Of a DNA stretch of 44,797 nt, positions 1,111 through 41,087 are shown piece by piece; positions within the stretch are counted from its first letter, which is position 1; every line of letters begins with the position of its first letter. The position numbers and the translations under genes were made by a program. The notes under the pieces are model-generated. The model ran no database searches and had not been told where the DNA came from. It saw only the letters and a list, made by a program, of their open reading frames with translations. Origin of the DNA: a virus (taxonomy: Duplodnaviria; Heunggongvirae; Uroviricota; Caudoviricetes). The stretch lies in the IMG/VR virus record IMGVR_UViG_2568526230_000010; one strand, written 5' to 3'.

Positions 1111-1142
1111 AAAAACCCTCTGTAGTAACAGAGGGTTTTGTT
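1111..1142. terminator. Bidirectional rho-independent terminator
   Basis: 10-bp perfect stem AACCCTCTGT/ACAGAGGGTT with loop AGTA, A-tract 5' and T-tract 3', directly after the stop of the 532..1071 gene. Confidence 0.7.
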
Positions 1143-1161
1143 CATTCATAGTGCAGGGTCA

Positions 1162-1260
1162 AATCATTCCCACTCAATTATTTACGGACACCATAACTAA
1201 TTGAGTGATAACATTTTTCCAAAGATGAATTTTTCTCGTACCGTTTTATATACCGTCACC
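1162..1260. other. Candidate att core and P' arm (start of attL/attP identity)
   Basis: First bases shared by the left junction and the inter-copy junction; contains 10-bp inverted repeat CACTCAATTA (1171-1180) / TAATTGAGTG (1198-1207) and the 11-mer ATACCGTCACC (1250-1260) that recurs in the opposite arm at 40954-40964. Confidence 0.35.
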
Positions 1261-1288
1261 GGAAATCAGTACCATGAAAAATGCCATG

Positions 1289-1771
1289 CTATCTGGTCAG
1301 TGTGTCGTACTGTTTTTCGCAGACTCTTCCGGCTTCGGCTGCCCGGTCAGCATACTCTGCCAGTTGTCTGTTTCTCTCGAGAGATTTGCTGAGCACGTCG
1401 GCAAGCAAAACTCCGGTGTCTGCGGCTGACGTCCCAGCGCCGACAATGGCGTTATACTGCCTGAGCTGCTCACGGATGGCAAAGAGTTGTTGCTGCAACC
1501 TGCCAGCGCGAGCGGCAGCATCAAGAGCATCGCTGCGCGCCTGCTCGATCCTCTGCTGCGCTTCACGTTCATTGGTCGCTTTCTCCTGTTCGTAGTGCTG
1601 ACGAACTTTTTCTTCTTCGGCTTTGCGGTCTTCTTTCGCCTGCGCATACCCGGCGTCGTACTGACGACTGCCGTGTGCATTCCAGGCTACAACTCCTGAT
1701 ATGACCAGAACAGCAAGCATCGCCATGATAACCAACTGTTTCCAGTATGCTTTTACGAATGCCCAGATCAT
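1289..1771 (-). CDS. Rz-like inner-membrane spanin
   Basis: 160 aa; N-terminal TM helix then Q/E/R/A-rich coiled coil; last gene of the lysis cassette, overlaps the endolysin stop by 4 nt. Confidence 0.75.
1297..1530 (-). CDS. Rz1-like outer-membrane lipoprotein spanin, embedded in Rz in the +1 frame
   Basis: Internal start gives [12 protein letters not shown]… with lipobox LAGC and a Pro/Ser-rich 77-aa product lying entirely inside the Rz ORF, as in lambda Rz/Rz1. Confidence 0.6.
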   Translation of the reverse strand: MLLMLPLALAGCSNNSLPSVSSSGSITPLSALGRQPQTPEFCLPTCSANLSRETDNWQSMLTGQPKPEESAKNSTTH

Positions 1772-2397
1772 ACCGCTAGCGCCTTACTGGCAGTGATGTA
1801 CCGAGCGCGCCGGTCGTCGATGCCGTTCCTGCCACCATTGATAATCAGAGTTACACGTGCAATATCGCCGGTATACTTCATGCAGCCTTTGCTGGAGAAA
1901 AACCACGCCGCGCTACGAGCTGCATATTCGTCCTGCGCCAGCAGTTCAGGATTCTCCAGCAGGTCCACTTTCAGGCCGTTTCCGCAGTCACGATAGTTAT
2001 TCAAACCGGTAATCTGGATAAGTCCGCGCCCACGGTAATTCCATCCATCGCCTGGGGCATTGTTACCCATGCGTTTGCTGTACACCAGATTTGCGATCGC
2101 GCGCTGGCGCTCGAGTTGCAATGGTGGTTCACCAGCACGGCGACCCAGTGCGTTGGCCTGTCCCTGAGTGAGACGTCCTGCCCGAACAAAGTTAGCCAGT
2201 CCTGTGACACTGTAGTTGAAATTCTCCTGCAACCTGGTGAAGCCACCAGACTCATGCCCGACTTGAGCAATAAACATTGCCTGATCTTCTGCTTTGCTGA
2301 TACCAAACTCTTTCATTGCAGAAGTTATATGCGAGAACCAGCGTGCGGCCAGCGCCTCGCTAATACCAGCAGCTCGCTGGAATTGTTTAATCTCCAT
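1768..2397 (-). CDS. Endolysin, glycoside hydrolase family 19 (chitinase-like lysozyme)
   Basis: 209 aa; motifs [12 protein letters not shown] and [12 protein letters not shown] typical of GH19 phage endolysins; sits between holin-like genes and Rz. Confidence 0.8.
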
Positions 2398-2695
2398 GTT
2401 TAGACCTCGTTATCTTGAAAATCTGAACGACGTTACCGCGAGTTTTAAGAACCGCAGCAAGCATGACAGCGTTGATAATGACCTCAGATAAATCCACAGC
2501 CATTGGCGTGCGTAACCAGATTGCATAGGCGACTCGAACAGGAATACTGGCCGCAGCAACAATCAGGAAATAAGCAAGCCATCCTCCCCACCTTCGATGT
2601 TGAGAGCCGTTACGCCGGAATGTGACAACGCGAATTGCTATGCCAGTGCAAATAACTGCATTGGTGATAAGCAAAAAAAACTCATGCGTTACCAT
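2387..2695 (-). CDS. Holin-like small membrane protein
   Basis: 102 aa with hydrophobic TM segments and a charged C-terminus; overlaps the endolysin start. Confidence 0.5.
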
Positions 2696-3086
2696 CGTCT
2701 TTTCTCCCCGGAATTAACTCGCGTGGATTATCGGAACGGTGATAGAGCCATATACCAATACGCACAGCGACAATTGCTGACACAAATGCGCCTGCAGAGA
2801 AAACAATCCCTTTTTCAAAAGAGTCCTGCGTGATGGTAGGGATCAGGCTGGCTATGCCGATAAGAATTGATGCTGCTGGTTTGTAAAAGAGAAGGCCGCA
2901 AAGAAAGCTGAGCATCGACAGGAGCACCCGGCGACGGATGGGGTACTCTACTGCAGAGGTAACAAAAATTACCGCCCCAGCCAAAGCCCCTAAAGCAACC
3001 TCCGGAGGGACACCTGCAATAACCGCAGCAAGAGAACTAACACTAAGCCACTGATTTGAAGTTTCATTGGTTAGTTGGAATGACAT
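2682..3086 (-). CDS. Holin/antiholin-like multi-TM membrane protein
   Basis: 134 aa, three to four hydrophobic helices; first gene of the lysis cassette, downstream of the tailspike. Confidence 0.5.
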   Translation of the reverse strand: MSFQLTNETSNQWLSVSSLAAVIAGVPPEVALGALAGAVIFVTSAVEYPIRRRVLLSMLSFLCGLLFYKPAASILIGIASLIPTITQDSFEKGIVFSAGAFVSAIVAVRIGIWLYHRSDNPRELIPGRKDDGNA

Positions 3087-3158
3087 AACGAAACCCGTTT
3101 ATTTGCAAACACCCTGCTTCAGGAAAAGTATACCGCGCAACAACACACCATTTACGGT

Positions 3159-5621
3159 TCAATTCCCTGTTAATTGCAAAACTTGCTCTTCCAGCTTTTT
3201 AACCCTGCGTCTCATCATCGCAGATTCCAGAATCAGAGCCTCTTCATAACGGATACCGTAACATTCACCAGCCTCGACGGCTTCGCGTACCAGAACCTTT
3301 GTCTGTATAAGTGGGTAAACTCCTGCAGAATGCTCTTCTTCCGTCACATCCCTGTATTCTGCCGGGGTCTCATTCCACTTGTCATAACAGATAAATGCCA
3401 GTCGTGACACATCTATGCCTTCATTCTGAAATACACTGATAACATGCTGCGCAACTGCACCAAAGTGCCATCTTGCTCCGTCTTTACCTTTCACTTCGAT
3501 CCTGTCAAGGTACTGGTATGAAACCCATTCCACTCTTTCCCATGCGTCCAGTATTTTCTCATCAATAACCTCTGGAGCAGTCTTGAAACGCGCATCGGAC
3601 AGCACCGTAAACGCTGACTGGGTAAATCCCCCCGACCATGCACGACCAGCCAACCCAAGAGAATAAGTATTCGTTGTCGATGGTGTCATGGCTGAATCAG
3701 AAAACTGTATATATTCTGAATTTCCAGTAGATATTCGAATATTTCCATTTATTAGCGACATAGTGCCTTTAGTATTATCACTATTGAATAATTTCAATTG
3801 CGAACTTATACCGCCTCCCACAGCCAGAGATACATCGCCTTCAGCAAGCATTCTGAATTTATCTGCAGAAACAAGCGTCTGGTTAGCAAGGTTAAAATAT
3901 TTAACCCACCATTCAAAACGCCCTGACATAGTCCCAACGTACTGACCAAGCGCAGGGACGTGAACAACATTGCTATTTGTAGTGCCGTCTATACTGGAAA
4001 TACCAGTCACCGCTGATGCAGAACTCAGAATATTATTTCTGTCACCAGGATGTTTAATTTCAACAAAGTTCCTGATACACCCTTCCTCGAAGGTAACCAC
4101 GCCGGAAGAACTATACATGGGGAATATTGACGCATAATTACTGCGTGCAGCATCTAAGAAACGAATGGTTGTAGATGTCTGCAGATCTCCTGATTCATTT
4201 TTCCCATCACACCCAGTCATTAGAATATTACTGGCAATATTATTATTTCCCTGAACGGTGACGCCGTGCGCCTGCTTTGCGTCCGATTCAGAGTAATCAA
4301 CCAGCACATCCGAAATCAGGTTACCAGTCCCCTTGCCAACAACTACTGCGGCGTATTTTGGGTTGTTAGCCATTACACTGCTAATGATATTATTCGTTGG
4401 GGCAGTTTCCGTCTCAGTTCCATTGTAAACAACGTGCTGACACTCTTCACCAATAACATTGCTGACAATGTTATATTTTGCTGCTGTTTTAAGTTCCACT
4501 GCACCAAACTGAGGATAATTTCTGGCTATCACACCATCAATTAGCGTATTTTGCGATGAATCAAAAAGCACACAACCTGCTTTTTTATTATTTGCGAACC
4601 CTAAATACTCTCCTCTTATATCTCTAACAATGTAACCTGACGGAATACCATTATTCGGATAAGCGATCAAGCTAAATCCTGTTCCTCGCGTATTTGTAAA
4701 TCTGATATTTTTAACCGATACATCATGGCCACCTGAAAATGACACCTGGTGTCCCTGCACACTATCATCTGATTTATTTCCCATAATTGTTAGCGTACTA
4801 AGCATGCCACCATCGGGCATGTTAAAAACCAGATGATTACCATCTCTGTCATACTGTTTTATCGTTCCCCCACCTGTTCCGTACAAGCCACAACGTGAAA
4901 GAGAAACTAAAGATGTATTGAATACCCCTTCCGGAACAAAAACACTGCTAAACGAATGTAATGATTTTGTAAAAGCATCCTTGTTATCATTTAAGATTCC
5001 ATTTTGAGCTCCAAAATCCTTAATGCTGACACCATCACGCATCTTATCCTGGAACGTTCTGTATACCGCTCCAGAACCATACTGAATAAACCAACCAAAA
5101 CCACCAATAACTCCGGCGATTGCAGCATCGACATAATTACGCATTGAGCGATTATTTACAGCGTCCTGCTCAAGTGATGGATCGGCAAGGTTAGATATTC
5201 TGTTTTGCTTTGCATCGTAATATTTTGCAAGCAAAGATGGTTTCATCAATGCACGTCTGAACAACCCAAAACATCGCTGGATCAGCATCGTCAGGTAGTC
5301 AAATGCATCCTCATGAACTTCGGGGAAAAATTTTCCCTGATTGCGAAGATCAGTCTCCTGCACCACATCAAGCACACGCTCTATCGTGATTCGCCAGCCA
5401 GCAGCAAGCGGCGACGGAAGAACCACTGCACCGCCACTATAAGTTCCCGCCCCTGTTACCGTATAACCAGCATCCAGCACTAGTTTTGTAACGTTACCGT
5501 TAAGGTCAGACACCTGAACAACCAGGTCGGATTTTTTGAAAATACGGAAGGTATACGGAAATGATGTCGTAACGCCGTTACCTGTGTATTCGTTGTGGTC
5601 AACTTCGGTTGAGACCGTCAT
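3159..5621 (-). CDS. Tailspike with beta-helix and C-terminal intramolecular chaperone (S74-type autoproteolytic) domain
   Basis: 820 aa; conserved podovirus particle-binding N-terminus; long Gly/Asn/Ser/Thr-rich repetitive middle; C-terminal 150 aa ending in a coiled coil resembles endosialidase-type chaperone domains. Confidence 0.8.
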   Translation of the reverse strand: MTVSTEVDHNEYTGNGVTTSFPYTFRIFKKSDLVVQVSDLNGNVTKLVLDAGYTVTGAGTYSGGAVVLPSPLAAGWRITIERVLDVVQETDLRNQGKFFPEVHEDAFDYLTMLIQRCFGLFRRALMKPSLLAKYYDAKQNRISNLADPSLEQDAVNNRSMRNYVDAAIAGVIGGFGWFIQYGSGAVYRTFQDKMRDGVSIKDFGAQNGILNDNKDAFTKSLHSFSSVFVPEGVFNTSLVSLSRCGLYGTGGGTIKQYDRDGNHLVFNMPDGGMLSTLTIMGNKSDDSVQGHQVSFSGGHDVSVKNIRFTNTRGTGFSLIAYPNNGIPSGYIVRDIRGEYLGFANNKKAGCVLFDSSQNTLIDGVIARNYPQFGAVELKTAAKYNIVSNVIGEECQHVVYNGTETETAPTNNIISSVMANNPKYAAVVVGKGTGNLISDVLVDYSESDAKQAHGVTVQGNNNIASNILMTGCDGKNESGDLQTSTTIRFLDAARSNYASIFPMYSSSGVVTFEEGCIRNFVEIKHPGDRNNILSSASAVTGISSIDGTTNSNVVHVPALGQYVGTMSGRFEWWVKYFNLANQTLVSADKFRMLAEGDVSLAVGGGISSQLKLFNSDNTKGTMSLINGNIRISTGNSEYIQFSDSAMTPSTTNTYSLGLAGRAWSGGFTQSAFTVLSDARFKTAPEVIDEKILDAWERVEWVSYQYLDRIEVKGKDGARWHFGAVAQHVISVFQNEGIDVSRLAFICYDKWNETPAEYRDVTEEEHSAGVYPLIQTKVLVREAVEAGECYGIRYEEALILESAMMRRRVKKLEEQVLQLTGN

Positions 5622-5725
5622 GTTAAATCTCCAGATAGTCGCAGCACCCGTTGCGCCGCATATCTGGTTATTCTATTACCTGAAAAACCATATATGGATA
5701 AAAAGACTGTAAATACGAATAGATA

Positions 5726-5740
5726 TTACCTTTCAGGTAA
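5726..5740. promoter_or_regulatory. Operator-like palindrome TTACCTTTCAGGTAA (perfect 6-3-6)
   Basis: Perfect inverted repeat in the divergent region between the tailspike and the accessory island; one of 13 family members. Confidence 0.5.
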
Positions 5741-5777
5741 TTTGCAAAACGTGCTGGATAGCAAACAAATTATTTGC

Positions 5778-5797
5778 TACTGTATAAATATACAGTT
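5778..5797. promoter_or_regulatory. LexA (SOS) box TACTGTATAAATATACAGTT
   Basis: CTGT-N8-ACAG with an AT-rich spacer, matching the enterobacterial SOS-box consensus at 19 of 20 positions; 21 nt upstream of the ATG at 5818. Confidence 0.7.
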
Positions 5798-5817
5798 ATT
5801 GCATGGAGAAGATTAAG

Positions 5818-6075
5818 ATGCAGCAGTATCACTATCCACTGGAAGACGGATTTACCGAAAGGATTCACACGCCGGGAGGCGTCAGGTCACTGGTGGAGGG
5901 ATCGCACTTGATGAAATTACTCCGGGATCTCGATAAGGATGGATTTAATGTCGATGGCCCACTTGCCGAACTGACTGCACTGATTAACTACGTCACCAGC
6001 TCACAGATGTCTATGCAGGATCTGCAAACACATCTCGACTATTGTGCCGAACAATTACGAAAACAAACCAGATAA
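5818..6075 (+). CDS. Small protein homologous to the C-terminal domain of the downstream antirepressor-like protein
   Basis: 85 aa; RBS GGAG 9 nt upstream; IHTPGGVRSLVEGSHLMKLL…MQDLQTHLDY aligns with IHSPSGVLGLTENSLLMNLL…LRDIQTHAEY in the 6889..7608 product. Confidence 0.6.
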   Translation: MQQYHYPLEDGFTERIHTPGGVRSLVEGSHLMKLLRDLDKDGFNVDGPLAELTALINYVTSSQMSMQDLQTHLDYCAEQLRKQTR

Positions 6076-6106
6076 GGTTTGAAATTACCAAATGGAGTGC
6101 TTATAT

Positions 6107-6121
6107 TTACCTTTGCGGTAA
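6107..6121. promoter_or_regulatory. Operator-like palindrome TTACCTTTGCGGTAA inside a hairpin
   Basis: Family member with one mismatch, lying in the loop of the inverted repeat GGAGTGC (6094-6100) / GCACTCC (6131-6137) just after the small-gene stop. Confidence 0.4.
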
Positions 6122-6147
6122 ATTTACATCGCACTCCTCTTGTGCCA

Positions 6148-6240
6148 TAGTAATCGGGCACTGGCAAAATCCAGTGCCGGGATTGGCGTCCCGGATTACT
6201 AGTAGGCGCATACCACGCCAGACGTGGTTTTTTTATGCGT
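6148..6240 (+). ncRNA. Candidate structured small RNA: tRNA-like three-way junction plus intrinsic terminator
   Basis: 8-bp closing stem TAGTAATC/GATTACTA encloses hairpins GGCACTGG-CAAAAT-CCAGTGCC and GGGA-TTGGCG-TCCC, followed by terminator ACCACG-CCAGA-CGTGGT plus T7; no credible ORF on either strand. Confidence 0.4.
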
Positions 6241-6389
6241 ATAGCACAGTCATATCCGAATTATGGTGGGCTGGGCAGGGGCACCGAAAGGTGCGCCGGT
6301 ACCTACTAGGCCGGTACGCCAACCTTGTCCAGTTCACCACCAGCAATTGGCGTTGCGGTGGTGGGTAACTTACTAGTAGAGGTATCGCT

Positions 6390-6896
6390 ATGCCAGGCCA
6401 AAAAATCTCAAACGACGATCTGTATTGGTTAATTTCTAATTCTCCACTCCTTCTTATGCTAAGGCAAGAAAGTGCACCACTGGTCAGTGAATTGATTAGC
6501 TGTAGAAATAGAATGTGGGATGAAGGGGCAGATTTAGATACCAATTTGTTTGATCATCTTATGCAACTAGCAGTCGATAACAAGGCAAAACTACGCTCTG
6601 AATACAACGCTTATCCAGAAATAGCAAAATACCTTAACGCTGAAATACTTGGTGGACCAGGTCAACCAGACCTAAAAACAAAAGATGGTTACCCTGTTGA
6701 GGTGAAGGTAGATACTTTTTCTCCTTCAGCATTAAAACAATTATTAAGGTATATGGATGCTTCTGGCGCAGATTTTGGTTTTGCTTGTGCAAAAACTCTT
6801 TCTGTAAAACTCCCTGAAAACATAAAGTTCATCCAGTTAGATTATAAAGATAATTGCTATTTCGTCGTGAAAGATGGAGGCAATGAAAATGCGTAA
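6390..6896 (+). CDS. Hypothetical protein, AT-rich accessory gene coupled to the antirepressor-like gene
   Basis: 168 aa; RBS GAGGT 5 nt upstream; lower GC than flanking phage genes; its end overlaps the start of the next gene. Confidence 0.55.
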   Translation: MPGQKISNDDLYWLISNSPLLLMLRQESAPLVSELISCRNRMWDEGADLDTNLFDHLMQLAVDNKAKLRSEYNAYPEIAKYLNAEILGGPGQPDLKTKDGYPVEVKVDTFSPSALKQLLRYMDASGADFGFACAKTLSVKLPENIKFIQLDYKDNCYFVVKDGGNENA

Positions 6897-25474: not shown

Positions 25475-25551
25475 GTGGCATTAGCTCAGTTGGACAGAGC
25501 AACCGCCTTCTAAGCGGTTGGTCGCAGGTTCGAATCCTGCATGCCACGCCA
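25475..25551 (+). tRNA. tRNA-Arg (anticodon UCU), phage-encoded
   Basis: Cloverleaf folded by hand: acceptor GTGGCAT/ATGCCAC, D-stem GCTC/GAGC, anticodon stem ACCGC/GCGGT with loop CTTCTAA, T-arm GCAGG-TTCGAAT-CCTGC, discriminator G and encoded CCA. Acceptor stem differs from host argU as recalled. Confidence 0.85.
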
Positions 25552-26196: not shown

Positions 26197-27672
26197 TTAA
26201 GCATAAGGGTCATAATCCGTTATGGCCCTTCCCTGCTGGCTTTGCTGTCCTGGTATATTTATGCGTTTCGAGACCGGGAAAGCAAACGTCAGCAGTAGCG
26301 CATCGCCTTTACCAGGAGAACGCCCAAGACGCTCTTTGATATCTTCCTTCGGTTCGATAACGATTTTACCGTCCACACGAACTTTGTACTCTGCCGCAGA
26401 CAGGTCGTCCGCTGTTTCCTGGTCATCCAGCATGCCGCCCAGCCTCAGCCATGTCTTGCATGAGTTGAACATCTCCCCACGCTTGTTGAGCATCTGCGGG
26501 TCAGTAGACGCGCCACCGAACGGAACAAGTTGCCATGTGCGCCCCCAACCATCACCGATTGACTTCAGACCGGTACCGTAACCGAAGTCGATGAACACCG
26601 CGTCAGCCTGATACTGGTCTTCAAAGTCAGCGATACGCTTCGCCATAATCAGATCGTCGGTAGTCTTGTTGCCAGTCCACAGCACCTTACTGTGTAGCCC
26701 CTGCCGCAGGTATATCACCGCGTCATCAACGCCTGAATATGCCGGGTCAACACCGATTATCACCGGAGCATGCGCCACCTGCGCAGCGGTTACCACCCGT
26801 TTCATTGCCTCATCAGTAAGACCGGTAGGGATAAACTGCAATTCAGATGCATCAGGGAATATGCCGCGCACACGGATTTTAACGAAGTCGCTGTCTTCCC
26901 CGTAGTCATCGACCCATTTCTGCAACTGCTGTTTGTTAGTGCCTTCCACCGTCCGGCTGTCAATCTGCGCAGTTTTCCAGCGGTGTTTATATTTGCGGAA
27001 ACATTCGCGGAAACGCCCGGTGTTACGTGTAGGGTTTCCGAACGCCACCCAGATAATCTCAGTGTCTTCGTCCGTAAGCGCACCCTCAGCAACTTCCCAC
27101 ACCAGATCCGCAATGTTCGACGCTTCATCGAATACCACGATGATGCGTTTGCGCTCGTTGTGTAGTCCGGCGAATGCCTCAGTGTTGTGCTCAGACCAGG
27201 GGATTGCGTCAGCTCGCCACCGCTTGTCGTGCCCAGGATCATTGCTGTACATCGCGGTAGCGGTACAGGTAAACCAGTCTTTCGTGATAGCAAGGTTCGA
27301 CCACTTGATAATTTCCGGCCAGGTCTTCGTTCGTAGCTGGTTGTCGGTGTTGGCGGTCACCACGACCTTACAATCCTCGCAAGTGGACATGCCCCAGTTG
27401 ATCAGCATTGAGATGAATGCGGATTTACCAATACCGTGACCAGAAGCACGTGCCAGCATAAGCGGCTGATATCGCGTCTCTGGATTCTGCAGGTGATCAC
27501 GTATCTCTCGGAACGCATCGGCCTGCCACTGACGTGGACCGGTGGCATGTGCCAGTTCAGTACCCTCTTCCCCCCACGGGAACGCATAGAGGGCATAGCC
27601 AAGCGGATCGTGAGTGAACCCTGCAATATCCTCGATTAACTGCTCTTCAGGAGATAACGCTGTATCTGTCAC
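26197..27672 (-). CDS. Terminase large subunit
   Basis: 491 aa; Walker-A-like GHGIGKSAF in the N-terminal ATPase part and acidic nuclease-domain motifs (VIIGVDPAYSGVDD); start overlaps the TerS stop by 4 nt. Confidence 0.85.
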   Translation of the reverse strand: MTDTALSPEEQLIEDIAGFTHDPLGYALYAFPWGEEGTELAHATGPRQWQADAFREIRDHLQNPETRYQPLMLARASGHGIGKSAFISMLINWGMSTCEDCKVVVTANTDNQLRTKTWPEIIKWSNLAITKDWFTCTATAMYSNDPGHDKRWRADAIPWSEHNTEAFAGLHNERKRIIVVFDEASNIADLVWEVAEGALTDEDTEIIWVAFGNPTRNTGRFRECFRKYKHRWKTAQIDSRTVEGTNKQQLQKWVDDYGEDSDFVKIRVRGIFPDASELQFIPTGLTDEAMKRVVTAAQVAHAPVIIGVDPAYSGVDDAVIYLRQGLHSKVLWTGNKTTDDLIMAKRIADFEDQYQADAVFIDFGYGTGLKSIGDGWGRTWQLVPFGGASTDPQMLNKRGEMFNSCKTWLRLGGMLDDQETADDLSAAEYKVRVDGKIVIEPKEDIKERLGRSPGKGDALLLTFAFPVSKRINIPGQQSQQGRAITDYDPYA

Positions 27673-33686: not shown

Positions 33687-34506
33687 CCCACACCCCTTCT
33701 ATCCAGTCAGTGTTATTCCAGTCAAGCTCATCGCTTTTCCCGGCGTTTTTTGATTTTCCCCTGATATGATTTACGCGCCTGGCGAATTTTTGTTCCCACT
33801 GAACCTGCGTGAACACTTTGCCCTCAGCCATCCAGTAATCCCGGAATGCAGCAAGTTCAGCAGGTGTAAATTCCGGTTCCGGCAGGGCCGTTCCCCACAG
33901 CGCAGCACGCCGTCGAAAATCCGGCGACGGATGCCAGCCATCGGTCATCGGAAATTTCCCGATGGGTTCACTCAGGCCATCCAGAAATTCAGGTTCAGCC
34001 ACCTGCAACGGCATACCGTTCGCTTCACTGGTCGGAGCACCCTCGCGCACGTGCGCTATGTGTGGGGTTTTATATATATCTTCCTCTTCCTCTTCCTCTG
34101 GTAACTCCTTTTGTAACGCTGTTGGCGTTACTTTTTGCGTTACTCGTTTTCGATGCTCTGCCACTCTTCTATTCGTAAGTGCACGTTTTTTCGATGATTC
34201 TCCATTATGTCGCTCAAAGTTTGGAAGAATTAGTTTGCCGTCATGATAAGCAAGCCATCCGACGCTAATGAGGGCGTCAGCAAATCCTGTAATAAAAGCG
34301 AGTCTATCAAGTACTCCTTTTGTAACGCTGCCAGCGTTACCGTCTATTGTTTGCTGGTCAGCCCATGCCCATATACGAACCAGCTTTCCAAGAACAGCAT
34401 CTGGATCAATACCCAGAATTTCTGCTATCTGAAAAATTTCAGGTTTATCAGGAGTGATAACTTCAACCTTAATCCAGCTGCTTGCCATAGGTTTCCCCTC
34501 TTGCAC
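33658..34506 (-). CDS. Replication initiation protein (O-like position, DnaT-like C-terminal region)
   Basis: 282 aa directly upstream of the P-like gene; N-terminus resembles replisome-organiser domains, central acidic linker (EEEEEED), C-terminal aromatic region. Confidence 0.6.
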   Translation of the reverse strand: MQEGKPMASSWIKVEVITPDKPEIFQIAEILGIDPDAVLGKLVRIWAWADQQTIDGNAGSVTKGVLDRLAFITGFADALISVGWLAYHDGKLILPNFERHNGESSKKRALTNRRVAEHRKRVTQKVTPTALQKELPEEEEEEDIYKTPHIAHVREGAPTSEANGMPLQVAEPEFLDGLSEPIGKFPMTDGWHPSPDFRRRAALWGTALPEPEFTPAELAAFRDYWMAEGKVFTQVQWEQKFARRVNHIRGKSKNAGKSDELDWNNTDWIEGVWDEINSRTSQ

Positions 34507-34775: not shown

Positions 34776-34807
34776 AATAGATATGAAAAGACCGCCGGGT
34801 GGCGGTC
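34776..34807 (-). terminator. tR1-like terminator downstream of the Cro-like gene
   Basis: GACCGCC-GGGT-GGCGGTC hairpin followed on the minus strand by a U-rich tract. Confidence 0.5.
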
Positions 34808-34829
34808 TACAGAGGGTTGTAGCTGGATA

Positions 34830-35060
34830 TCATGAGTAGAAGAAGTATGCCAGTTCTGCTTTTGAGCGCAGCCATTGTCTTGTTTTACAGGCTTTAAAAA
34901 GCCCATTCATCAATACTTTACCTGGCATTTTGCGCTTACCTGTTAAGTGAGTCTGGATATAGTGACTCGTCGTTCCGGCTTCCTGTGCGAAGGCTTCACG
35001 CTCATCCGGAGTAAGTGCAAGCCAGTGCTTTTTGAAATCGAAATGTCCGTTATCGCTCAT
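34830..35060 (-). CDS. Cro-like small DNA-binding regulator
   Basis: 76 aa, basic, transcribed divergently from the repressor-like gene across an operator-rich 154-bp region. Confidence 0.6.
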   Translation of the reverse strand: MSDNGHFDFKKHWLALTPDEREAFAQEAGTTSHYIQTHLTGKRKMPGKVLMNGLFKACKTRQWLRSKAELAYFFYS

Positions 35061-35096
35061 AGCTATTGCCTGATATTTATTTCAGATAATAAATAT

Positions 35097-35159
35097 TCAC
35101 CCATAAGGTAACAAAAATCAAGGATAGTTACCCATGAGGTGCATTTACCTGTTGGGTAA
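35097..35159. promoter_or_regulatory. Switch-region operator cluster (three TTACCT-N3-AGGTAA-like sites)
   Basis: TCACCCATAAGGTAA (35097-35111), TTACCCATGAGGTGC (35128-35142) and TTACCTGTTGGGTAA (35145-35159) between the divergent Cro-like and repressor-like starts. Confidence 0.5.
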
Positions 35160-35214
35160 TATTGCTTTAAATTGAATCATCTACTGATTCATATATGAGG
35201 CGATTTTCCAGAAA

Positions 35215-35799
35215 ATGAAAAGTATCCAGGACGTCCGCAGGCAAAATCTCAACGACTTGATCGACCGTGAATTCAATGGTGTTCAGACGCGGATGGCAGA
35301 AAAACTTGGAACTCAGGCAAATCTGGTAAACCGCTGGGCTCTTGGCAAGAAGGTTATCGGCGACCAGGTTGCGCGAAAAATTGAAGCTGCCGCCAATAAA
35401 CCACGTAACTGGCTTGATATCGATCGCTCGCTTTCTCAGGAAGGTTTTCAGCCTGTCGGCCCAAGCGACATTGGTCAGCTGGCGGCTCACAACCTGGAAC
35501 GCTGGATGAGCGAAAGCCGCGACCTTTCAACTCAGGGAAAACTTCACCGCGCATCCGGCGTCGCCCAGGTGACAATCAGCCGCCTGTTAAACAATGAGGT
35601 CAGTGTTTCCATTTCCACCCTGGAGAATGTTGCATCAGCATTCGGGCGTCACGGCTATGAATTACTGATTCACCCGCACGACCCTGCGACCATCAACTAT
35701 GACCGCTCGCGCTACGCATTGTTACCCGAAACCGAGAAAGCAAAGATCGAAAGTTACATTGAATTTGTCATCAACCAGAACGAAAAAAACAAACAATAA
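35215..35799 (+). CDS. Prophage repressor candidate with two HTH (XRE-type) motifs and no S24 peptidase domain
   Basis: 194 aa; HTH-like segments near residues 20-45 and 105-135; no Ala-Gly cleavage site or Ser/Lys peptidase domain seen; own terminator downstream. Confidence 0.6.
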   Translation: MKSIQDVRRQNLNDLIDREFNGVQTRMAEKLGTQANLVNRWALGKKVIGDQVARKIEAAANKPRNWLDIDRSLSQEGFQPVGPSDIGQLAAHNLERWMSESRDLSTQGKLHRASGVAQVTISRLLNNEVSVSISTLENVASAFGRHGYELLIHPHDPATINYDRSRYALLPETEKAKIESYIEFVINQNEKNKQ

Positions 35800-35821
35800 A
35801 ATCATATTTTTCAGTAAGTAA

Positions 35822-35843
35822 GCCGCCTTCTGGCGGCTTTTTT
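35822..35843 (+). terminator. Rho-independent terminator
   Basis: GCCGCC-TTCT-GGCGGC followed by T6, after the repressor-like gene. Confidence 0.7.
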
Positions 35844-35856
35844 ATTGCCTATACTA

Positions 35857-35933
35857 TTACCTAATGGGTAATTTTTTTAACTCATATCTATTGACATCAA
35901 ACCAAATACGCATAATTATTACCTCAACGGTAA
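35857..35933. promoter_or_regulatory. Early promoter flanked by two operator-like palindromes
   Basis: TTACCTAATGGGTAA (35857-35871), -35 TTGACA (35891-35896), AT-rich -10 near 35912-35919, then TTACCTCAACGGTAA (35919-35933). Confidence 0.5.
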
Positions 35934-35952
35934 CAGACCGAGGTAACAAGTT

Positions 35953-36105
35953 ATGCAGTGGAAAATCATCAACGGTTGGTACTGCGTTACTGCATGCGGA
36001 TTCATGAGCTGGAAGTTCCGCACCTTACAGGAAGGCATTAAGTGGGCTTTCGTCAGCAAAGAAGCTCGCGATGTGGCCAACGATAACGAGATATGGGAGG
36101 GCTGA
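35953..36105 (+). CDS. Small hypothetical protein, first gene of the plus-strand early operon
   Basis: 50 aa, below the ORF-track cutoff; RBS GAGGTAA; Trp-rich. Confidence 0.35.
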   Translation: MQWKIINGWYCVTACGFMSWKFRTLQEGIKWAFVSKEARDVANDNEIWEG

Positions 36106-36107
36106 TA

Positions 36108-36407
36108 ATGAACGTTAATCAGCAGAAAAATCTTCAAAAAATCATGCTGGCATTCGACAAGGACTACCGCCTGTCAGAACAGCTATATGACCGACAAGTT
36201 GAACTGATCGAGAGCATCCGGCTTCATCAACTGGCCTCAACTTTCGACGCTGTAACAGGTAAAGGCGTTCGCCAGGAAGTACTGGAGGCCGCTAAAGACA
36301 GTCCAGAGTTCGAAGAACTGATGGATTCCTACCGGCGAGAGGCAATGGCAATTATCGCCCGCTGGGATCTGGCTGATCAGCTTGATGGGCAGAGGGACGC
36401 GGCATGA
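36108..36407 (+). CDS. Hypothetical early protein
   Basis: 99 aa from the ATG preceded by GGGAGGG (ORF track starts at 36093); 4-nt overlap with the next gene. Confidence 0.5.
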   Translation: MNVNQQKNLQKIMLAFDKDYRLSEQLYDRQVELIESIRLHQLASTFDAVTGKGVRQEVLEAAKDSPEFEELMDSYRREAMAIIARWDLADQLDGQRDAA

Positions 36408-37225
36408 AACCGGGAATTTATTTCGACATCAGCAACGAAGACTACCACGCCGGTGACGGCGTGAGTAAGTCGCAACTGGACATGGTTGCCAAGAATCCGG
36501 CGCTTCTTAAATGGGTTCAGGCAGCACCAGAAGACGAAGAGAAAAAGTCTGCACTGGATATGGGAACCGCATTGCACTGTCTGCTTCTGGAGCCTGGAGA
36601 GTTCGACAAACGCTTCATTGTTTCACCGAAATTCGAACGTCGGACGAAACAAGGTAAAGCTGACGAAGAGGCATTTCTTCGTGATATTGCGGATATGGGG
36701 ATTTCGGTACTTGATGCAGAGCAGTGGCGGAAACTGGAGCTGATGCGTGATAGCGCAATGGCTCACCCGGCGGCACGCTGGATGTTGGAAGCACCTGGTT
36801 ACTGCGAAGCATCAATGTACTGGAACGATGAAGAGACGGGGGAGTTGTGCCGAATTCGTCCAGACAAATGGCTGAACGAGCACAACGTGATCGTCGACGT
36901 GAAAAAGGTTGCAGATATGGACCGTTTTGCACGCCACATCGAGGAATTCCGCTACCACGTGCAGGACGCAATGTACCGCGAAGGCGCAATGAGGGTTACT
37001 GGTCAGCCGCATGGTTTTTTCTTTCTTGCCGTGAGCGAAAGCATTGATTGTGGTCGGTATCCGGTACGCGTGTTCGAGCTGGATGCGCCAGATGTCGATG
37101 CCGGGCACGCTCTGTTCCGCCGGGATCTGAATACCTATCACGAATGCCGCATCAACGATGAATGGGGCGGAGTGGAAATTATTAAACGCCCTGACTGGGC
37201 ACGTAAACAGGATATGTACGTATGA
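36404..37225 (+). CDS. RecE-like exonuclease, PD-(D/E)xK family
   Basis: N-terminus GIYFDISNEDYHAGDGVSKSQLD and the IVDVKKV motif are typical of exonuclease VIII-type nucleases; directly upstream of an annealase gene. Confidence 0.7.
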   Translation: MKPGIYFDISNEDYHAGDGVSKSQLDMVAKNPALLKWVQAAPEDEEKKSALDMGTALHCLLLEPGEFDKRFIVSPKFERRTKQGKADEEAFLRDIADMGISVLDAEQWRKLELMRDSAMAHPAARWMLEAPGYCEASMYWNDEETGELCRIRPDKWLNEHNVIVDVKKVADMDRFARHIEEFRYHVQDAMYREGAMRVTGQPHGFFFLAVSESIDCGRYPVRVFELDAPDVDAGHALFRRDLNTYHECRINDEWGGVEIIKRPDWARKQDMYV

Positions 37226-38103
37226 GCAATGATATCGCAATCACATCACAACCAGGCGCAACTGTAGGTACTGCTGCGGCAATCTTCAGCCCGGAGGGCA
37301 TGAATCAACTGGTGCGTTTCGCGGAGTTGATGTCACAAAGCAAAGCGACTGTACCGAAACATCTTGAAGGCAAACCTGCCGATTGCCTGGCGGTGACCAT
37401 GCAGGCGGCACAGTGGGGAATGAACCCTTTCGCCGTGGCGCAGAAAACGCATGTGGTAAACGGAACGTTAGGCTACGAAGCACAGTTGGTAAACGCGGTC
37501 GTATCCTCTTCCAGCCTGCTAGCGACACGCCTGAATTATCGCTGGAGCGGTGACTGGTCGAATGTTAACGGCAAAACAGATAAATCACCGAATCTGACGG
37601 TAACTGTGTCAGCAGTTCTTAAAGGAGAAGCAGAACCCCGTGAGCTTACCATCAGTATGGCGCAAGCCGGAGTGCGTAACTCTCCATTGTGGGAACAGGA
37701 TCCGCGCCAGCAGCTTGCCTATCTTTGCACGAAACGATGGGCTCGCCTGCACGCTCCTGATGTGCTTCTCGGTGTTTACACCCCTGACGAATTACAGGAA
37801 ACGGCACCGCGCGTTGAGCGAGACATTACTCCGCAAACGACTACTGCTGCGGGAATGAACAGTCTGATCAACGCTAAACCAGTGAAAAAGCATGATGAGC
37901 AAACGCGTAAAGCGGATAGCCGTGATCCAGAAGAAATGCTGATGGCCTTTACCAGCGCAGCGATGAATTACAGCACCGTCTCCGAACTGGATAAGGCTTA
38001 CAAATACATTGCACAAAAACTTTCAGATGATGACGAACTGCTGGCAAAAGCCACCGACGTTTACAGCGTTCGTCGGGAAGAATTAAACGAAACATCTATG
38101 TAA
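37222..38103 (+). CDS. Single-strand annealing protein (RecT/Red-beta family)
   Basis: Segments LAVTMQAAQWGMNPFA and SPLWEQDPRQQLAYLCTKRWARL parallel conserved Red-beta/RecT regions; coupled to the exonuclease. Confidence 0.7.
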   Translation: MSNDIAITSQPGATVGTAAAIFSPEGMNQLVRFAELMSQSKATVPKHLEGKPADCLAVTMQAAQWGMNPFAVAQKTHVVNGTLGYEAQLVNAVVSSSSLLATRLNYRWSGDWSNVNGKTDKSPNLTVTVSAVLKGEAEPRELTISMAQAGVRNSPLWEQDPRQQLAYLCTKRWARLHAPDVLLGVYTPDELQETAPRVERDITPQTTTAAGMNSLINAKPVKKHDEQTRKADSRDPEEMLMAFTSAAMNYSTVSELDKAYKYIAQKLSDDDELLAKATDVYSVRREELNETSM

Positions 38104-38152
38104 CCACCACCGCGGCGCCACGCGCGCCGCACTGCAACCAAGAGAGGTATTT

Positions 38153-38401
38153 ATGAAAGGTGCATTAGGTAAGAAGGAACTCCTGGCGGTGGTGCCACTG
38201 TCATGGAGCACTATCGACCGTATGGAGCGCGCAGGTGAATTTCCTAAACGCTGGTATATCACTGACAAACGCTGCGCATGGAACCGTGACGAAGTTGAGC
38301 GTTGGCTTGATGAACGTCAGGCAGCAAGCCCGGCAGAGTTCCAGGGTAAAAAACCTCCTGTTCAGCAACGTGTATATCGTCCCGTGAGCAACGCTGCATG
38401 A
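38153..38401 (+). CDS. AlpA-family DNA-binding protein (excisionase-like regulator)
   Basis: 82 aa; LSWSTIDRMERAGEFPKRWYITDKRCAWNRDEVERWL matches the AlpA/Xis-like family. Confidence 0.7.
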   Translation: MKGALGKKELLAVVPLSWSTIDRMERAGEFPKRWYITDKRCAWNRDEVERWLDERQAASPAEFQGKKPPVQQRVYRPVSNAA

Positions 38402-38510
38402 GTGCGCTGCTAAGGCACTGGATCAAATGGTCAGGATGGTACTTATTCCTGGCCTCTGTTTCAGCATGGCTTTATCTGCTGGCATTAATTTTCAGAGAGG
38501 GTTGGATTAA

Positions 38511-38783
38511 GTGAGAAAGTTAAGCCGACTTGAAAAATATCACATGAATAAGGTTTCAATGCGCAGTCCGTCAAAGATTGTCGCCGTTACTCCTGCGGCG
38601 ATAGAGATCGAAAAACGCGCGATTGAAAGAGAGAAAAAGGGCAGTTCCGCATTGCCGCTCACCTTTGGCTTCAGTGTATGGATGTTGCTTCTGGTGATGT
38701 TGAGCGTGCAAGGATCGCGGTTCGCAGGGACCAATGTATCACAAAAGGTAACGGCCTTCGCCGTGGAGACTATAGCGGTATAG
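38511..38783 (+). CDS. Hypothetical small protein with a C-terminal hydrophobic segment
   Basis: 90 aa; basic N-terminus then a hydrophobic stretch (FGFSVWMLLLVMLSV). Confidence 0.4.
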   Translation: MRKLSRLEKYHMNKVSMRSPSKIVAVTPAAIEIEKRAIEREKKGSSALPLTFGFSVWMLLLVMLSVQGSRFAGTNVSQKVTAFAVETIAV

Positions 38784-38801
38784 GATGTTGCGGGGTGGTT
38801 T

Positions 38802-39452
38802 ATGACTAAGAAATACACACTAATCTATGCAGATCCACCCTGGGTATACCGGGACAAAGCCGCAGATGGTAATCGCGGTGCCGGTTTTAAATATCCGGTT
38901 ATGAGTGTGCTGGATATCTGCCGCCTTCCTGTGTGGGATTTGGCCGATGAAAACTGTCTGTTGGCCATGTGGTGGGTGCCAACACAACCACTCGAAGCAC
39001 TAAAAGTTGTTGAAGCCTGGGGATTCCGTCTGATGACGATGAAGGGCTTCACGTGGATAAAATGTGGTAGTCGACAACCAGATAAACTGGTTATGGGTAT
39101 GGGACACATGACTCGCGCCAATAGTGAAGATTGCCTGTTTGCGGTAAAGGGAAAACTACCTACGCGCATTAATGCAGGGATCGTTCAGTCATTTACCGCA
39201 CCGCGGCTTGAGCATTCAAGAAAGCCAGATATCGTTCGTGAAAAACTTGTGCAATTATTAGGCGATGTTTCTCGCATTGAACTGTTCGCCCGCCAGACGT
39301 CTCATGGCTTCGATGTTTGGGGTAATCAGTGCGAAGACCCGGCAGTGCAACTACACCCTGGATACGCGTTGGATATTGGCGGATTAACAAATGCATTCAG
39401 CAATGCTCCGCTGTCACCAACAGACAACCAGGGGCGGGAGCGTGCTGCATGA
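38802..39452 (+). CDS. MT-A70-family DNA N6-adenine methyltransferase (orphan)
   Basis: 216 aa; catalytic DPPW motif in IYADPPWVY; no restriction endonuclease gene adjacent. Confidence 0.75.
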   Translation: MTKKYTLIYADPPWVYRDKAADGNRGAGFKYPVMSVLDICRLPVWDLADENCLLAMWWVPTQPLEALKVVEAWGFRLMTMKGFTWIKCGSRQPDKLVMGMGHMTRANSEDCLFAVKGKLPTRINAGIVQSFTAPRLEHSRKPDIVREKLVQLLGDVSRIELFARQTSHGFDVWGNQCEDPAVQLHPGYALDIGGLTNAFSNAPLSPTDNQGRERAA

Positions 39453-39643
39453 ACAGGGCATCACCAGCAGATTTAAGAAAATGCCTTGAAACTGCAAACA
39501 TGCTTGCACACAGCGGGATCAGGTTTGTTCCAATTCCCGCTGTCACTGATGCTGAATTTGCAACACTGTCAGCAATATTCGAAAACAAAATTGAATCACT
39601 GGCAGCAGAAGCAGAGATGGAAGAAAATCAGCAGAACTATTAA
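39449..39643 (+). CDS. Hypothetical small protein
   Basis: 64 aa; start forms an ATGA overlap with the methyltransferase stop. Confidence 0.45.
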   Translation: MNRASPADLRKCLETANMLAHSGIRFVPIPAVTDAEFATLSAIFENKIESLAAEAEMEENQQNY

Positions 39644-39646
39644 ACG

Positions 39647-40897
39647 TTATTCCCCCGCCATCCACTTCTCAAACTTCGACGGGGAGAACGGAATCAGATC
39701 CGTATGCTCCCCGTCAATCCATGAATCAATCATATCGGCCCACTGCTGCAACATGTAGGCGCGCTGTCTGGCGTATTCCGCTTTGTTATATACGGCGCGC
39801 ACACCTTTCTGCTCATGTGCCAGAGCCTTTTCAATCCAGTCTGAAGGATAACCAGCCTCATGCAACAACGTACTGGCTGTACGGCGCATATCATGTACAG
39901 TGAAGTCCTGAATATGCTCACCATCTTCATTTATTATTTTCACCGTTCTGTCGATCAGAGAGTTCAGCGCGGCATTAGATAATGGCTTCCGGAAATTGTA
40001 ACGACCAGGAACCAGATATTCACTTCCACCAGCGCACATCTGCAACCCGACCAATATATCCTGTGCCTGTTTAGGCAGGTAAATAACGTGCGCCCGGCTT
40101 CCCTTCATGCGGTCTGGAGGAATTGTCCATGTCCATTTTTTAAAATCTATTTCATCCCACGTTGCATTGGTGAATTCGCCCTTACGAACCATAGTGATAA
40201 GCACCAGTTTTAAAGCCATTTTCATAGTGCCCATAGCACCAATGGCATCCAGCGTGCGGAAGAACAGGCCAATTTCTTCTGGTGTCAGTGTTCGCTCTCG
40301 TGGTTTAAATATGGCGATAGACGAAGGTTTAATGTCAGCCGCAGGATTAAACAAACCATGACCACGGTCATTGGCGTGACGGTATACGCTACTGATGATC
40401 TCCCTGGCCTGCACTGCTGTTGCCCGGCCACCGCGTTCGACAATCCGGTCACACAAATCACGAACCATCGATGTGGTAATTTCAGCCATCATTTTATTGC
40501 CAAGAACCGGAAGTATGTCACGGTCGATCACCGCCTGTTTCATTGCGCGGGTACTGTCAGCCAGGATGACGTGTTTCATATAACTGTCGGTATGTACCGC
40601 AAACGTCTCGGCACCACGAATCTTTTTGATACCGTCACGTTTAGCCGCAGCCGGTGACTGGCCTGCTTTAAGCAGCTTCTTTGCAGCAATCAGTTCTTCT
40701 CGCGCTTCTGCCAGGCTGATACCGTCACGCCCATACTGCCCGATTACCAGTGTTTCGCGGCGACCGTTGATACGGTAGTCATAGCGAAACGAGACCGTGC
40801 CTGACGTAAGCACAGCTACATACAGCCCGTCACGATCGGAGACCTTGTACAGTTTGTCCTGCGGCTTGAGGTTTTTTAATTTTGTATCGGTAAGCAC
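39647..40897 (-). CDS. int: Tyrosine integrase (P4-type with N-terminal arm-binding domain)
   Basis: 416 aa; N-terminal DUF4102-like region (LYKVSDRDGLYVAVLTSGTVSFRYDYR) and C-terminal catalytic region with HDMRRT and a conserved Tyr; last gene before the inter-copy junction. Confidence 0.85.
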   Translation of the reverse strand: MLTDTKLKNLKPQDKLYKVSDRDGLYVAVLTSGTVSFRYDYRINGRRETLVIGQYGRDGISLAEAREELIAAKKLLKAGQSPAAAKRDGIKKIRGAETFAVHTDSYMKHVILADSTRAMKQAVIDRDILPVLGNKMMAEITTSMVRDLCDRIVERGGRATAVQAREIISSVYRHANDRGHGLFNPAADIKPSSIAIFKPRERTLTPEEIGLFFRTLDAIGAMGTMKMALKLVLITMVRKGEFTNATWDEIDFKKWTWTIPPDRMKGSRAHVIYLPKQAQDILVGLQMCAGGSEYLVPGRYNFRKPLSNAALNSLIDRTVKIINEDGEHIQDFTVHDMRRTASTLLHEAGYPSDWIEKALAHEQKGVRAVYNKAEYARQRAYMLQQWADMIDSWIDGEHTDLIPFSPSKFEKWMAGE

Positions 40898-41087
40898 AAT
40901 TCACCCGTATAGAAACCATTTTCATGACGGTATGAGAGTATACCTTTAAGGTAATACCGTCACCTGTACCGACGAAAAATATGGTGTAGAGTGAATAGAA
41001 ATGAATACATAAAAACAAAAACCCTCTGTAAAAACAGAGGGTTAAATTAGTATCTGAATAGGAATGAGTTGCTATGAGTTAGCTGTT
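40898..41087. other. attP-type P arm between the integrase and the second prophage copy
   Basis: Unique 190-bp segment carrying a terminator hairpin, an ATACCT-N3-AGGTAA site (40940-40954) and the ATACCGTCACC repeat (40954-40964); identity with the left junction resumes at 41088. Confidence 0.5.
41011..41043 (-). terminator. Terminator hairpin nearly identical to the host-flank terminator
   Basis: Stem AACCCTCTGT/ACAGAGGGTT identical to 1114-1137; loop AAAA instead of AGTA; U-tract only on the minus strand. Confidence 0.55.

Follow-up and report, generated by a model that had tools for sequence, protein, structure and literature searches.

A phage attachment arm carries a predicted guaA terminator whose stem is identical to that of the displaced Escherichia coli terminator

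When a prophage integrates at the 3' end of guaA and parts the gene from its own terminator, what ends guaA transcription and keeps it out of the phage integrase gene? The question is raised by the window studied here, the whole 44,797-nucleotide stretch of IMG/VR record IMGVR_UViG_2568526230_000010, which holds E. coli yfgH-yfgI and then a tandem phiV10/epsilon15-type (Uetakevirus) prophage. The host genes are yfgH (1..516, + strand), a glycine-zipper lipoprotein gene assigned from how E. coli genomes annotate the regions that match it at 100% and from Pfam (Rick_17kDa_Anti/Gly-zipper), whose start codon possibly lies just beyond the window edge, and yfgI (532..1071, + strand; DUF5384, by E. 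coli annotation and Pfam); in the unoccupied chromosome yfgI and guaA are convergent. The prophage unit is 39,926 bp long, and the start of its second copy (41088..44797) is 100% identical to 1162-4871. On the minus strand we found an Rz-like spanin gene (DUF2514; 1289..1771; annotation and Pfam), which is the final gene of the leftward lysis cassette, the endolysin gene (1768-2397; Pfam), and a leftward tyrosine integrase gene, int (39647..40897; Pfam Arm-DNA-bind_3 and Phage_integrase), whose DNA is 97-98% identical to that of phiV10 and ZX5 and whose start codon is GTG.

The 17-bp att core, AATCATTCCCACTCAAT, lies at 1162..1178 in attL (B-O-P'), where identity between the prophage copies begins and where the K-12 comparison and the published core place it as well. 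A second copy, located by sequence and by the repeat identity, lies at 41088..41104 in the P-O-P' junction between the tandem prophages. Read on the minus strand, the core is ATT GAG TGG GAA TGA, the final four guaA codons and stop, followed by TT. It matches the published core, attgagtgggaatgatt, and both the core and the guaA target have been published for epsilon15, phiV10 and vB_EcoP_ZX5 (PMC9782041). K-12 attB, the window's attL, the P-O-P' junction and the attR of the single lysogen Ecol_AZ162 align exactly at the core. Insertion leaves the target intact, a full 525-aa GuaA protein being annotated in the lysogen. Three clustered synonymous guaA differences beside the lysogen core were considered as phage-derived and rejected, as many unoccupied sites have this allele too.

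The sequence-only reading of this DNA had proposed that the stem of a host-flank terminator at 1114-1137 is reproduced in the phage arm at 41020-41043, with changes only in the loop and the downstream tract, and direct comparison bore this out. The host copy (1111-1137) is AAAAACCCTCTGTAGTAACAGAGGGTT and the phage copy (41017-41043) is AAAAACCCTCTGTAAAAACAGAGGGTT; 25 of their 27 bases are identical, and both mismatches fall inside the 4-nt loop (1125-1126, GT in the host and AA in the phage). The 10-bp stems, AACCCTCTGT/ACAGAGGGTT, are the same in both (1114-1123/1128-1137 and 41020-41029/41034-41043), and the plus-strand 3' tails differ, with TTTTGTTC after the host copy and AAATTAGT after the phage copy. 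Chance does not account for the likeness: the highest-scoring 27-mer pairing of the 150-170-nt arms reached 25/27, compared with at most 20 in 300 shuffles. Outside the hairpin we detected no residual homology between the arms, either in the spacers (p = 0.97) or in the left flanks (p = 0.91). The hairpin sequence occurs once per genome in 5407 of 5426 E. coli genomes, and a second copy appears only in the approximately 569 that carry this prophage type; with a median of one place per genome and a maximum of three, it is not a dispersed palindromic repeat of the REP/BIME kind. Nor is the hairpin itself the crossover core. Its copies are 39906 bp apart, which is 20 nt short of the 39926-bp prophage repeat, and the 17-bp core, as published, lies 24 nt from the end of the host hairpin and 44 nt from the end of the phage hairpin. 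The intervening spacers are unrelated; the 24-nt host B-arm spacer (1138..1161) is identical in K-12 attB, and the 44-nt phage P-arm spacer (41044..41087) contains a GAATAG repeat and corresponds to a part of epsilon15 in which IHF sites are annotated.

Both hairpins have the form expected of an intrinsic terminator stem (G+C-rich, about 5-14 bp, with a short loop), having 10 bp, 6 G-C pairs and a 4-nt loop. Rfam gave no match above the gathering threshold at either, only sub-threshold hits of 10-29 bits against cut-offs of 40-175. On sequence, folds and K-12 attB, the host element (1110..1141) is a predicted bidirectional terminator serving yfgI in the plus sense and guaA in the minus sense. 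It comprises an A6 tract (1110-1115), the stem, the loop (1124-1127) and T4 (1136-1139), and folds at -19.3 kcal/mol on the plus strand and -17.8 on the minus strand (z -5.7 and -5.0), with tails of U4GUU and U6, respectively. Because A6 lies upstream and T4 downstream, it can act in both directions. A simple terminator scan did not call it, in our reading because the stem runs into the A/T tracts. Comparison with the unoccupied attB of K-12 placed this hairpin between the convergent yfgI and guaA genes, 26 nt past the guaA stop, and its order of A-tract, stem and T-tract resembles that of bidirectional E. coli terminators between convergent genes.

In contrast to such terminators, the phage copy lacks a plus-strand U-tract and is unidirectional. 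As had been noted, its U-tract is on the minus strand only (AACCCUCUGUUUUUACAGAGGGUUUUUGUUUUUA), and the scan called that strand alone. This predicted terminator (41009..41043, - strand), for which the fold, the epsilon15 and phiV10 annotation and conservation also speak, consists of a stem (41043-41034/41029-41020), a loop (41033-41030) and the template of the U-tract (41019-41009; RNA UUUGUUUUUAU); it folds at -15.9 kcal/mol (z -5.4). The U-rich tract directly 3' of the stem is UUUUUGUUUUU, on the minus strand only, and the tail in the guaA sense is U5GU5. Termination here, and how efficient it would be, are predictions from these features.

The position of the phage hairpin relative to genes depends on the junction. 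The sequence-only reading had leftward transcription entering from the host side after integration. In this window 41020-41043 is not at a host junction; it lies at P-O-P' between the tandem prophages, a kind of junction also present in five complete E. coli genomes. The attR of a single lysogen does join it to the host. In Ecol_AZ162 the order is intact guaA, core, 44-nt phage spacer, phage hairpin, U-tract and int, so leftward guaA transcription reaches the hairpin before int. The geometry in which leftward host transcription meets the hairpin ahead of int is thus supported, the source being guaA, outside the window. At attR the hairpin is 46 nt past the guaA stop and upstream of int, and it is 122 nt upstream of the int start codon. 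At the tandem junction 172 nt separate it from the Rz stop, and it is the first minus-strand terminator call after Rz/Rz1 both there and in the circular form. It therefore stands downstream of a gene in either setting, guaA at attR and Rz at the tandem junction. What the phage supplies in place of the displaced host sequence is a terminator in the same orientation and at a comparable distance from the guaA stop, 46 nt against 26 nt in the host.

Taken together, the observed anatomy of attB and attR and the conservation in related attP sites lend good support to the proposal that the phage brings a replacement terminator with it. We put at roughly three in four the probability that the hairpin is a replacement guaA terminator and int insulator built into the P arm, which would also end the lysis operon in the free phage. 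It would act on leftward RNA as a unidirectional intrinsic terminator between the core and an integrase arm-type repeat. The latter is represented in the P arm by a copy of ATACCGTCAC (40954..40963, + strand), identified by sequence match to a repeat that the epsilon15 record lists as a binding site for integrase; other exact copies begin at 1250, 41176, 40629, 40719 and 40376 (- strand), and 13 matches were observed where 1.9 were expected. In free or replicating phage the hairpin would end the lysis transcript (holin, endolysin, Rz/Rz1) ahead of int. On integration guaA's own predicted bidirectional terminator (1114-1137) stays at attL, 40 kb from guaA, and the phage hairpin, now joined to guaA at attR, would stop guaBA transcription there before it reaches int. 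The exchange would be reciprocal, in that the host hairpin at attL may stop the prophage lysis operon before it enters yfgI in the antisense direction.

Related attP or attR sites without the hairpin would speak against this role, and among those examined there was no such case. The hairpin is present in 8 GenBank phages of E. coli, Salmonella, Klebsiella and Enterobacter; within IMG/VR, every attP and attR copy of the family has it too, with its distance to TCATT constant at 46 nt. We judged pairing in the variants by folding each one, including one with a one-base loop deletion (L188). All three variant positions in the phage stem, and the one host variant, give a G.U pair in minus-strand RNA and a C.A mismatch in plus-strand RNA; the variants fold at -14.7 to -16.5 kcal/mol on the minus strand and as weakly as -9.6 on the plus strand. 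This observed strand bias may point to strand-specific selection, with p about 0.06 when each of the four distinct sites is counted once. More distant elements, with integrases 55-71% identical, likewise start int approximately 190-225 nt past the guaA stop, and each carries a different hairpin and U-tract starting 36-47 nt past that stop; five or more unrelated stems are represented among them. Conservation alone is no proof of a guaA role, since a role in the free phage would conserve the hairpin anyway.

That point leads to the alternative that the hairpin is the phage's own late-operon terminator and is under no selection for a role at guaA. It would then follow guaA in the lysogen only incidentally, and would resemble the host hairpin through descent. 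Its standing as the first minus-strand terminator after Rz fits such an account, as does its annotation in that capacity in the epsilon15 and phiV10 records. We nevertheless consider it unlikely, because in all the related-integrase elements, compared on their guaA side, the distance from the guaA stop to a terminator stays the same while the terminator's sequence differs, and because relic hairpins persist beside guaA after the rest of the element has gone. The late-operon and guaA roles are compatible with each other and are not mutually exclusive.

In phage lambda, sib, the retroregulator of int, is an RNA hairpin at the attachment site, downstream of int, whose linkage to genes is changed by integration and which works through RNase III processing. 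The phage hairpin shares the location at the attachment site and the linkage altered on integration, but it has intrinsic terminator form and lies upstream of the int start (40897), and we rejected a retroregulator of the sib type, an RNase III-sensitive hairpin downstream of int.

A leaky attenuator, through which controlled read-through from the guaBA promoter would express int in the lysogen, has a precedent in the asn-int arrangement of ICEKp1 in Klebsiella pneumoniae, where the tRNA-Asn terminator is displaced and stem-loops lie in the int 5' UTR (PMC13023037). ICEKp1 resembles the present case in its insertion at the 3' end of a host gene, in the host terminator lying at the element's far end, and in element-borne stem-loops between core and int that limit host-promoter transcription into int. 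It differs in that read-through does express int and the stem-loops merely attenuate it, whereas the phage hairpin, known here from sequence alone, is canonical, with a long U-tract and a stem matching the displaced host terminator. A crude scan found no sigma-70-like promoter between hairpin and int, in keeping with this reading, but a GTGACG-15 nt-TATACT candidate is visible by eye. With a canonical strong stem and long U-tract in place of the weak ICEKp1 stem-loops, we regard attenuation as distinctly improbable.

Finally, a DNA-level recombination element (an IHF, Xis or Int site, or a cruciform), present in attP and attB because the integrase needs it, would suit a hairpin lying inside attP between arm-type repeat and core, the IHF site that the epsilon15 record puts over its right half and the 20-bp spacing difference of about two helical turns, but it is very improbable indeed given that lysogens form in hosts with an unrelated B-arm hairpin, that unrelated hairpins occupy this position beside related integrases and that substitutions keep RNA pairing on one strand only.

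A replacement guaA terminator would fit a broader pattern. Islands in tRNA and tmRNA genes (Islander database, PMC4383910) make good the 3' end of the gene that they enter, as do prophages inserted at the ends of protein genes; in those elements, as here, the carried sequence replaces what integration removes and the target stays functional. Unlike them, the restored coding part here is the 17-bp core only, and the unrelated 44-nt spacer separates the terminator that resembles the host's from the identity block. Annotation of the hairpin as a terminator is not new: a rho-independent terminator between Rz and int is annotated in epsilon15 (AY150271.2, stem_loop 26795-26824) and phiV10 (DQ126339.2, regulatory 26781-26813), and it is the orthologous element, the same in position, stem and strand. 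Neither guaA termination nor likeness to E. coli yfgI/guaA is mentioned in those record annotations or in the ZX5 paper (PMC9782041), and a literature search for the guaA/yfgI terminator returned nothing relevant; within these sources, which do not include the epsilon15 and phiV10 papers, where it may be discussed, we did not find the identity to the E. coli terminator stated.

As biology, a replacement terminator is tidy but mostly expected and raises no new question. It would show a prophage at the end of the essential, highly expressed guaBA avoiding both unterminated host mRNA and host-driven int transcription, and a terminator kept in position and varied in sequence among related-integrase elements points to a general design rule for att sites in gene 3' ends. 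Uses include att-site annotation, guaA integration vectors and the recognition of prophage scars.

The identity of the stem to that of E. coli is a separate matter. We considered whether the phage hairpin tracks the terminator of its own host genus and rejected this, as the E. coli-type stem is found in all the phages. It bears no relation to the terminators that natively follow guaA in Citrobacter sp., Raoultella, Tatumella, Enterobacter and Pseudocitrobacter, and some lysogens are in hosts where guaA natively has an unrelated terminator. Likeness to the host is thus unnecessary for function, and function does not explain the identity to E. coli, since this stem also occurs in phages of other hosts. 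Parts of it, with paired changes, recur in hairpins at the corresponding yfgI-proximal position of E. marmotae, E. albertii, Citrobacter portucalensis and Salmonella, and we infer an Escherichia-type yfgI/guaA terminator as the source from which the phage captured its stem. Two relics bear on its later fate: in Citrobacter sp. NCU1 the phage hairpin, together with a spacer like the phage's, still stands beside guaA with the integrase absent, and in one S. enterica genome a hairpin of the phage type, again spaced by 46 nt, adjoins an IS3 fragment. They suggest that a leftover hairpin may become a working guaA terminator. The full sequence of events, in which the Uetakevirus attP terminator is a captured Escherichia yfgI/guaA copy that spread to Salmonella, Klebsiella, Enterobacter and Citrobacter and, after prophage decay, took over at guaA, is one we hold tentatively and at somewhat less than even odds; if true, terminators pass both ways between the chromosome and the elements that target it. 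The host orthologous loci in this comparison were gathered through YfgI homologues; a contig scan with the guaA 3' end gave mostly unrelated phyla because that end is widely conserved. A spacer-plus-terminator common to Citrobacter, Tatumella and other loci was considered as the arm of another element, and this was rejected; we treat it as host sequence because it also serves as the host B arm in lysogens.

The first 1161 nucleotides of the window are E. coli chromosome, matched by over 5,300 complete genomes of the species, and contain yfgH (1-516) and yfgI (532-1071), both on the plus strand and both identified by E. coli genome matches and Pfam. From 1162 onward the sequence is that of a phiV10/epsilon15-type podophage of the genus Uetakevirus, whose leftward Rz/Rz1 and endolysin genes lie at 1289-2397 and occur a second time from 41215, whose leftward int lies at 40897-39647, and whose tRNA-Arg(TCT) (25475-25551, plus strand) is the sole tRNA in the window. 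Across int-att-Rz, identity is 97-98% with phiV10, vB_EcoP_ZX5 and the O157 typing phages and ∼83% with epsilon15 and SPN1S. Positions 41088-44797 repeat 1162-4871 at 100% identity (0 mismatches over 3.7 kb), and the prophage, as assembled, is a head-to-tail tandem with a 39,926-bp unit. This prophage type is present in ∼565 of 5,426 complete E. coli genomes, five of which have a P-O-P' tandem junction (none identical to that of the window), and 4,571 have an uninterrupted attB. An uninterrupted yfgI-guaA attB is absent from ∼855 genomes, versus ∼565 with this prophage type; the remainder may have other insertions or divergent alleles at this site.

The 17-bp core, AATCATTCCCACTCAAT, stands at 1162-1178 and 41088-41104, where identity between the prophage copies starts. 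It is the reverse complement of attgagtgggaatgatt, the core already published, together with integration at the guaA 3' end, for phiV10, epsilon15 and ZX5 (PMC9782041), and its minus strand reads ATT GAG TGG GAA TGA, the final four guaA codons and the stop. In K-12, yfgI (+) and guaA (-) are convergent and 92 bp apart, and the unoccupied site runs yfgI, hairpin, 24 nt, core, guaA. The core copies and this order identify 1162 as attL (B-O-P') and 41088 as a P-O-P' junction, with the true attR beyond the window. Ecol_AZ162, a single lysogen whose left junction is 100% identical to that of the window, has an attR consisting of int, the P arm with its hairpin, a 44-nt spacer, the core and an intact 525-aa guaA. 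Just before the core, the guaA codons of this lysogen (locus L004, 47270-47286) and of K-12 (locus L003, 3474-3490) show three synonymous differences within 10 nt, which we set aside as ordinary host polymorphism because the lysogen allele is common in unoccupied sites too. The phage hairpin (41020-41043) lies inside attP, between a copy of ATACCGTCAC at 40954 and the core. This repeat, annotated in the epsilon15 record as an integrase-binding site, is enriched around att (13 matches versus 1.9 expected), with exact copies at 40376 (minus strand), 40629, 40719, 40954, 41176 and 1250, three of them within the int coding region.

The sequence-only reading had described the phage hairpin as a near-copy of the host terminator at 1114-1137, changed only in the loop and downstream tract and with a U-tract only on the minus strand, and our comparison bore this description out. 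Two loop bases are all that separates the 27-mers at 1111-1137 and 41017-41043, and their 10-bp stems are identical; the host stem is preceded by A6 and followed by T4, and the phage stem is preceded by an A-rich tract and followed by AAATT. In a simple terminator scan, the phage hairpin is called only on the minus strand, with the tail TTTGTTTTTA. The same scan made no call at the host hairpin, which we attribute to its stem extending into the A/T tracts; both hairpins, on both strands, fold far better than shuffled controls. Shuffled arms never gave a match above 20/27, so the observed 25/27 is not due to chance, and no relationship was found in the remainder of the two arms. Nearly every E. 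coli genome has exactly one copy of the hairpin sequence, at the yfgI-guaA locus, and a second copy is present only where the prophage is. In two attP sequences from IMG/VR (L233 and L258), the phage hairpin has the loop TTTTT instead of AAAAA on an unchanged stem, a change that resembles inversion of the loop.

The hairpin is left of the core in both host and phage, and Rz/Rz1, endolysin, int and, at attR, guaA are all transcribed leftward. Integration swaps the partners, leaving guaA's own terminator at attL, 40 kb from guaA, and placing the phage hairpin with its U5GU5 tract 46 nt past the guaA stop; it stands 122 nt ahead of the int start. Reciprocally, the prophage lysis operon acquires the host hairpin downstream, with a U6 tail in its minus-strand RNA. 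Both in the circular phage genome and at the tandem junction, the phage hairpin is the first terminator that minus-strand transcription would meet beyond Rz, and it probably serves the phage's own lysis operon as well. Both the unoccupied K-12 attB and the single-lysogen Ecol_AZ162 attR support the proposal that the phage brings in a replacement terminator, and termination in the guaA sense is a supported prediction. We consider the likeness to the host hairpin incidental to this function.

Related phages lacking the hairpin would have spoken against the replacement-terminator proposal, and none was found: the hairpin occurs in eight GenBank phages, whose hosts are E. coli, Salmonella, Klebsiella and Enterobacter, as well as in every attP/attR that IMG/VR yielded for this family, at a constant 46 nt from TCATT. 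Three stem positions vary among phages and one differs in a host variant, and all changes are transitions that turn the pair into G.U in the minus-strand RNA and into a C.A mismatch on the plus strand; the variants fold at -14.7 to -16.5 kcal/mol on the minus strand and down to -9.6 on the plus strand. This strand bias, at four distinct sites, is suggestive rather than conclusive of an RNA terminator acting in the guaA sense. IMG/VR attR junctions at the same guaA core (L265, L271/L278/L290, L279/L303, L293 and L295) include elements whose integrases share 55-71% identity with that of the window, lie in the same orientation and start 190-225 nt downstream of the guaA stop. Every one of these elements has its own hairpin plus U-tract, beginning 36-47 nt after the stop codon, and at least five of the stems are unrelated to one another. 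Position and form are kept and sequence is not, which fits a terminator and argues against a sequence-specific DNA-binding site. A further IMG/VR sequence, L179, joins an L271-type P arm via the core to a Uetakevirus P' arm, indicating two different guaA-targeting elements in tandem.

Two host loci have a phage-type hairpin with the phage-like 46-nt spacing beside guaA and no integrase nearby: Citrobacter sp. NCU1 (L130, ∼1340-1450), with a cytochrome c gene upstream, and one S. enterica genome (L134, ∼3940-4030), where it adjoins a fragment of an IS3 transposase. Both loci have the appearance of prophage scars, from which guaA would now draw its terminator.

On the host side, Escherichia coli alone shows the stem match. 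The guaA terminators native to Citrobacter sp., Raoultella, Tatumella, Enterobacter and Pseudocitrobacter are unrelated (GCCCGC...GCGGGC types), and lysogens are found also in hosts with such B arms, so neither integration nor function requires likeness to the host. Phages from other genera likewise bear the E. coli-type stem in place of one resembling their own host's. The stem could have passed from phage to host. The hairpin beside yfgI, though, has recognisable host relatives with paired changes: that of E. marmotae shares ACAGAGGGTTTTGTT, and the others are AACCCTCC...GGAGGGTT in E. albertii, AGCCCTCT...AGAGGGCT in C. portucalensis and AACCTCTG...CAGAGGTT in Salmonella. From these relatives, the hairpin appears to be of long standing in the host lineage, and the phage would have captured its version from an Escherichia-type site, a direction we infer. 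The arms share nothing beyond the hairpin, which leaves no simple aberrant-excision route. In Salmonella, unrelated insertions have expanded the yfgI-guaA interval (L134, L260, L261 and L135/L136) to 270 bp in S. bongori and 1 kb or several kb in S. enterica, and yfgI and guaA each have their own terminator.

The epsilon15 and phiV10 records already annotate the phage hairpin as a rho-independent terminator. It is a standard principle that an integrative element makes good what its insertion removes from the target gene (PMC4383910), and experiments on ICEKp1 published in 2026 demonstrated that the tRNA-Asn terminator is displaced on integration and that stem-loops in the int 5' UTR reduce host-promoter read-through (PMC13023037). 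In the literature searched, which did not take in the original epsilon15 and phiV10 genome papers, we found no mention that the phage stem equals the displaced E. coli terminator and no account of elements with related integrases keeping the hairpin's position while its sequence varies. Our finding is a well-documented further example of a known phenomenon.

Elsewhere in the prophage, Rfam matches to isrK (6158-6234, plus strand, 68 bits) and C4 antisense RNA (6259-6344, plus strand, 77 bits), both above the gathering score, lie side by side and presumably represent antisense-RNA control of an antirepressor, as in P1/P7/P22-type immunity regions. In the early or immunity region, a 28-nt direct repeat (34104-34131 and 34313-34340; 89% identical, 209 bp apart) contains the palindrome GTAACGC...GCGTTAC and may represent operators or terminators.
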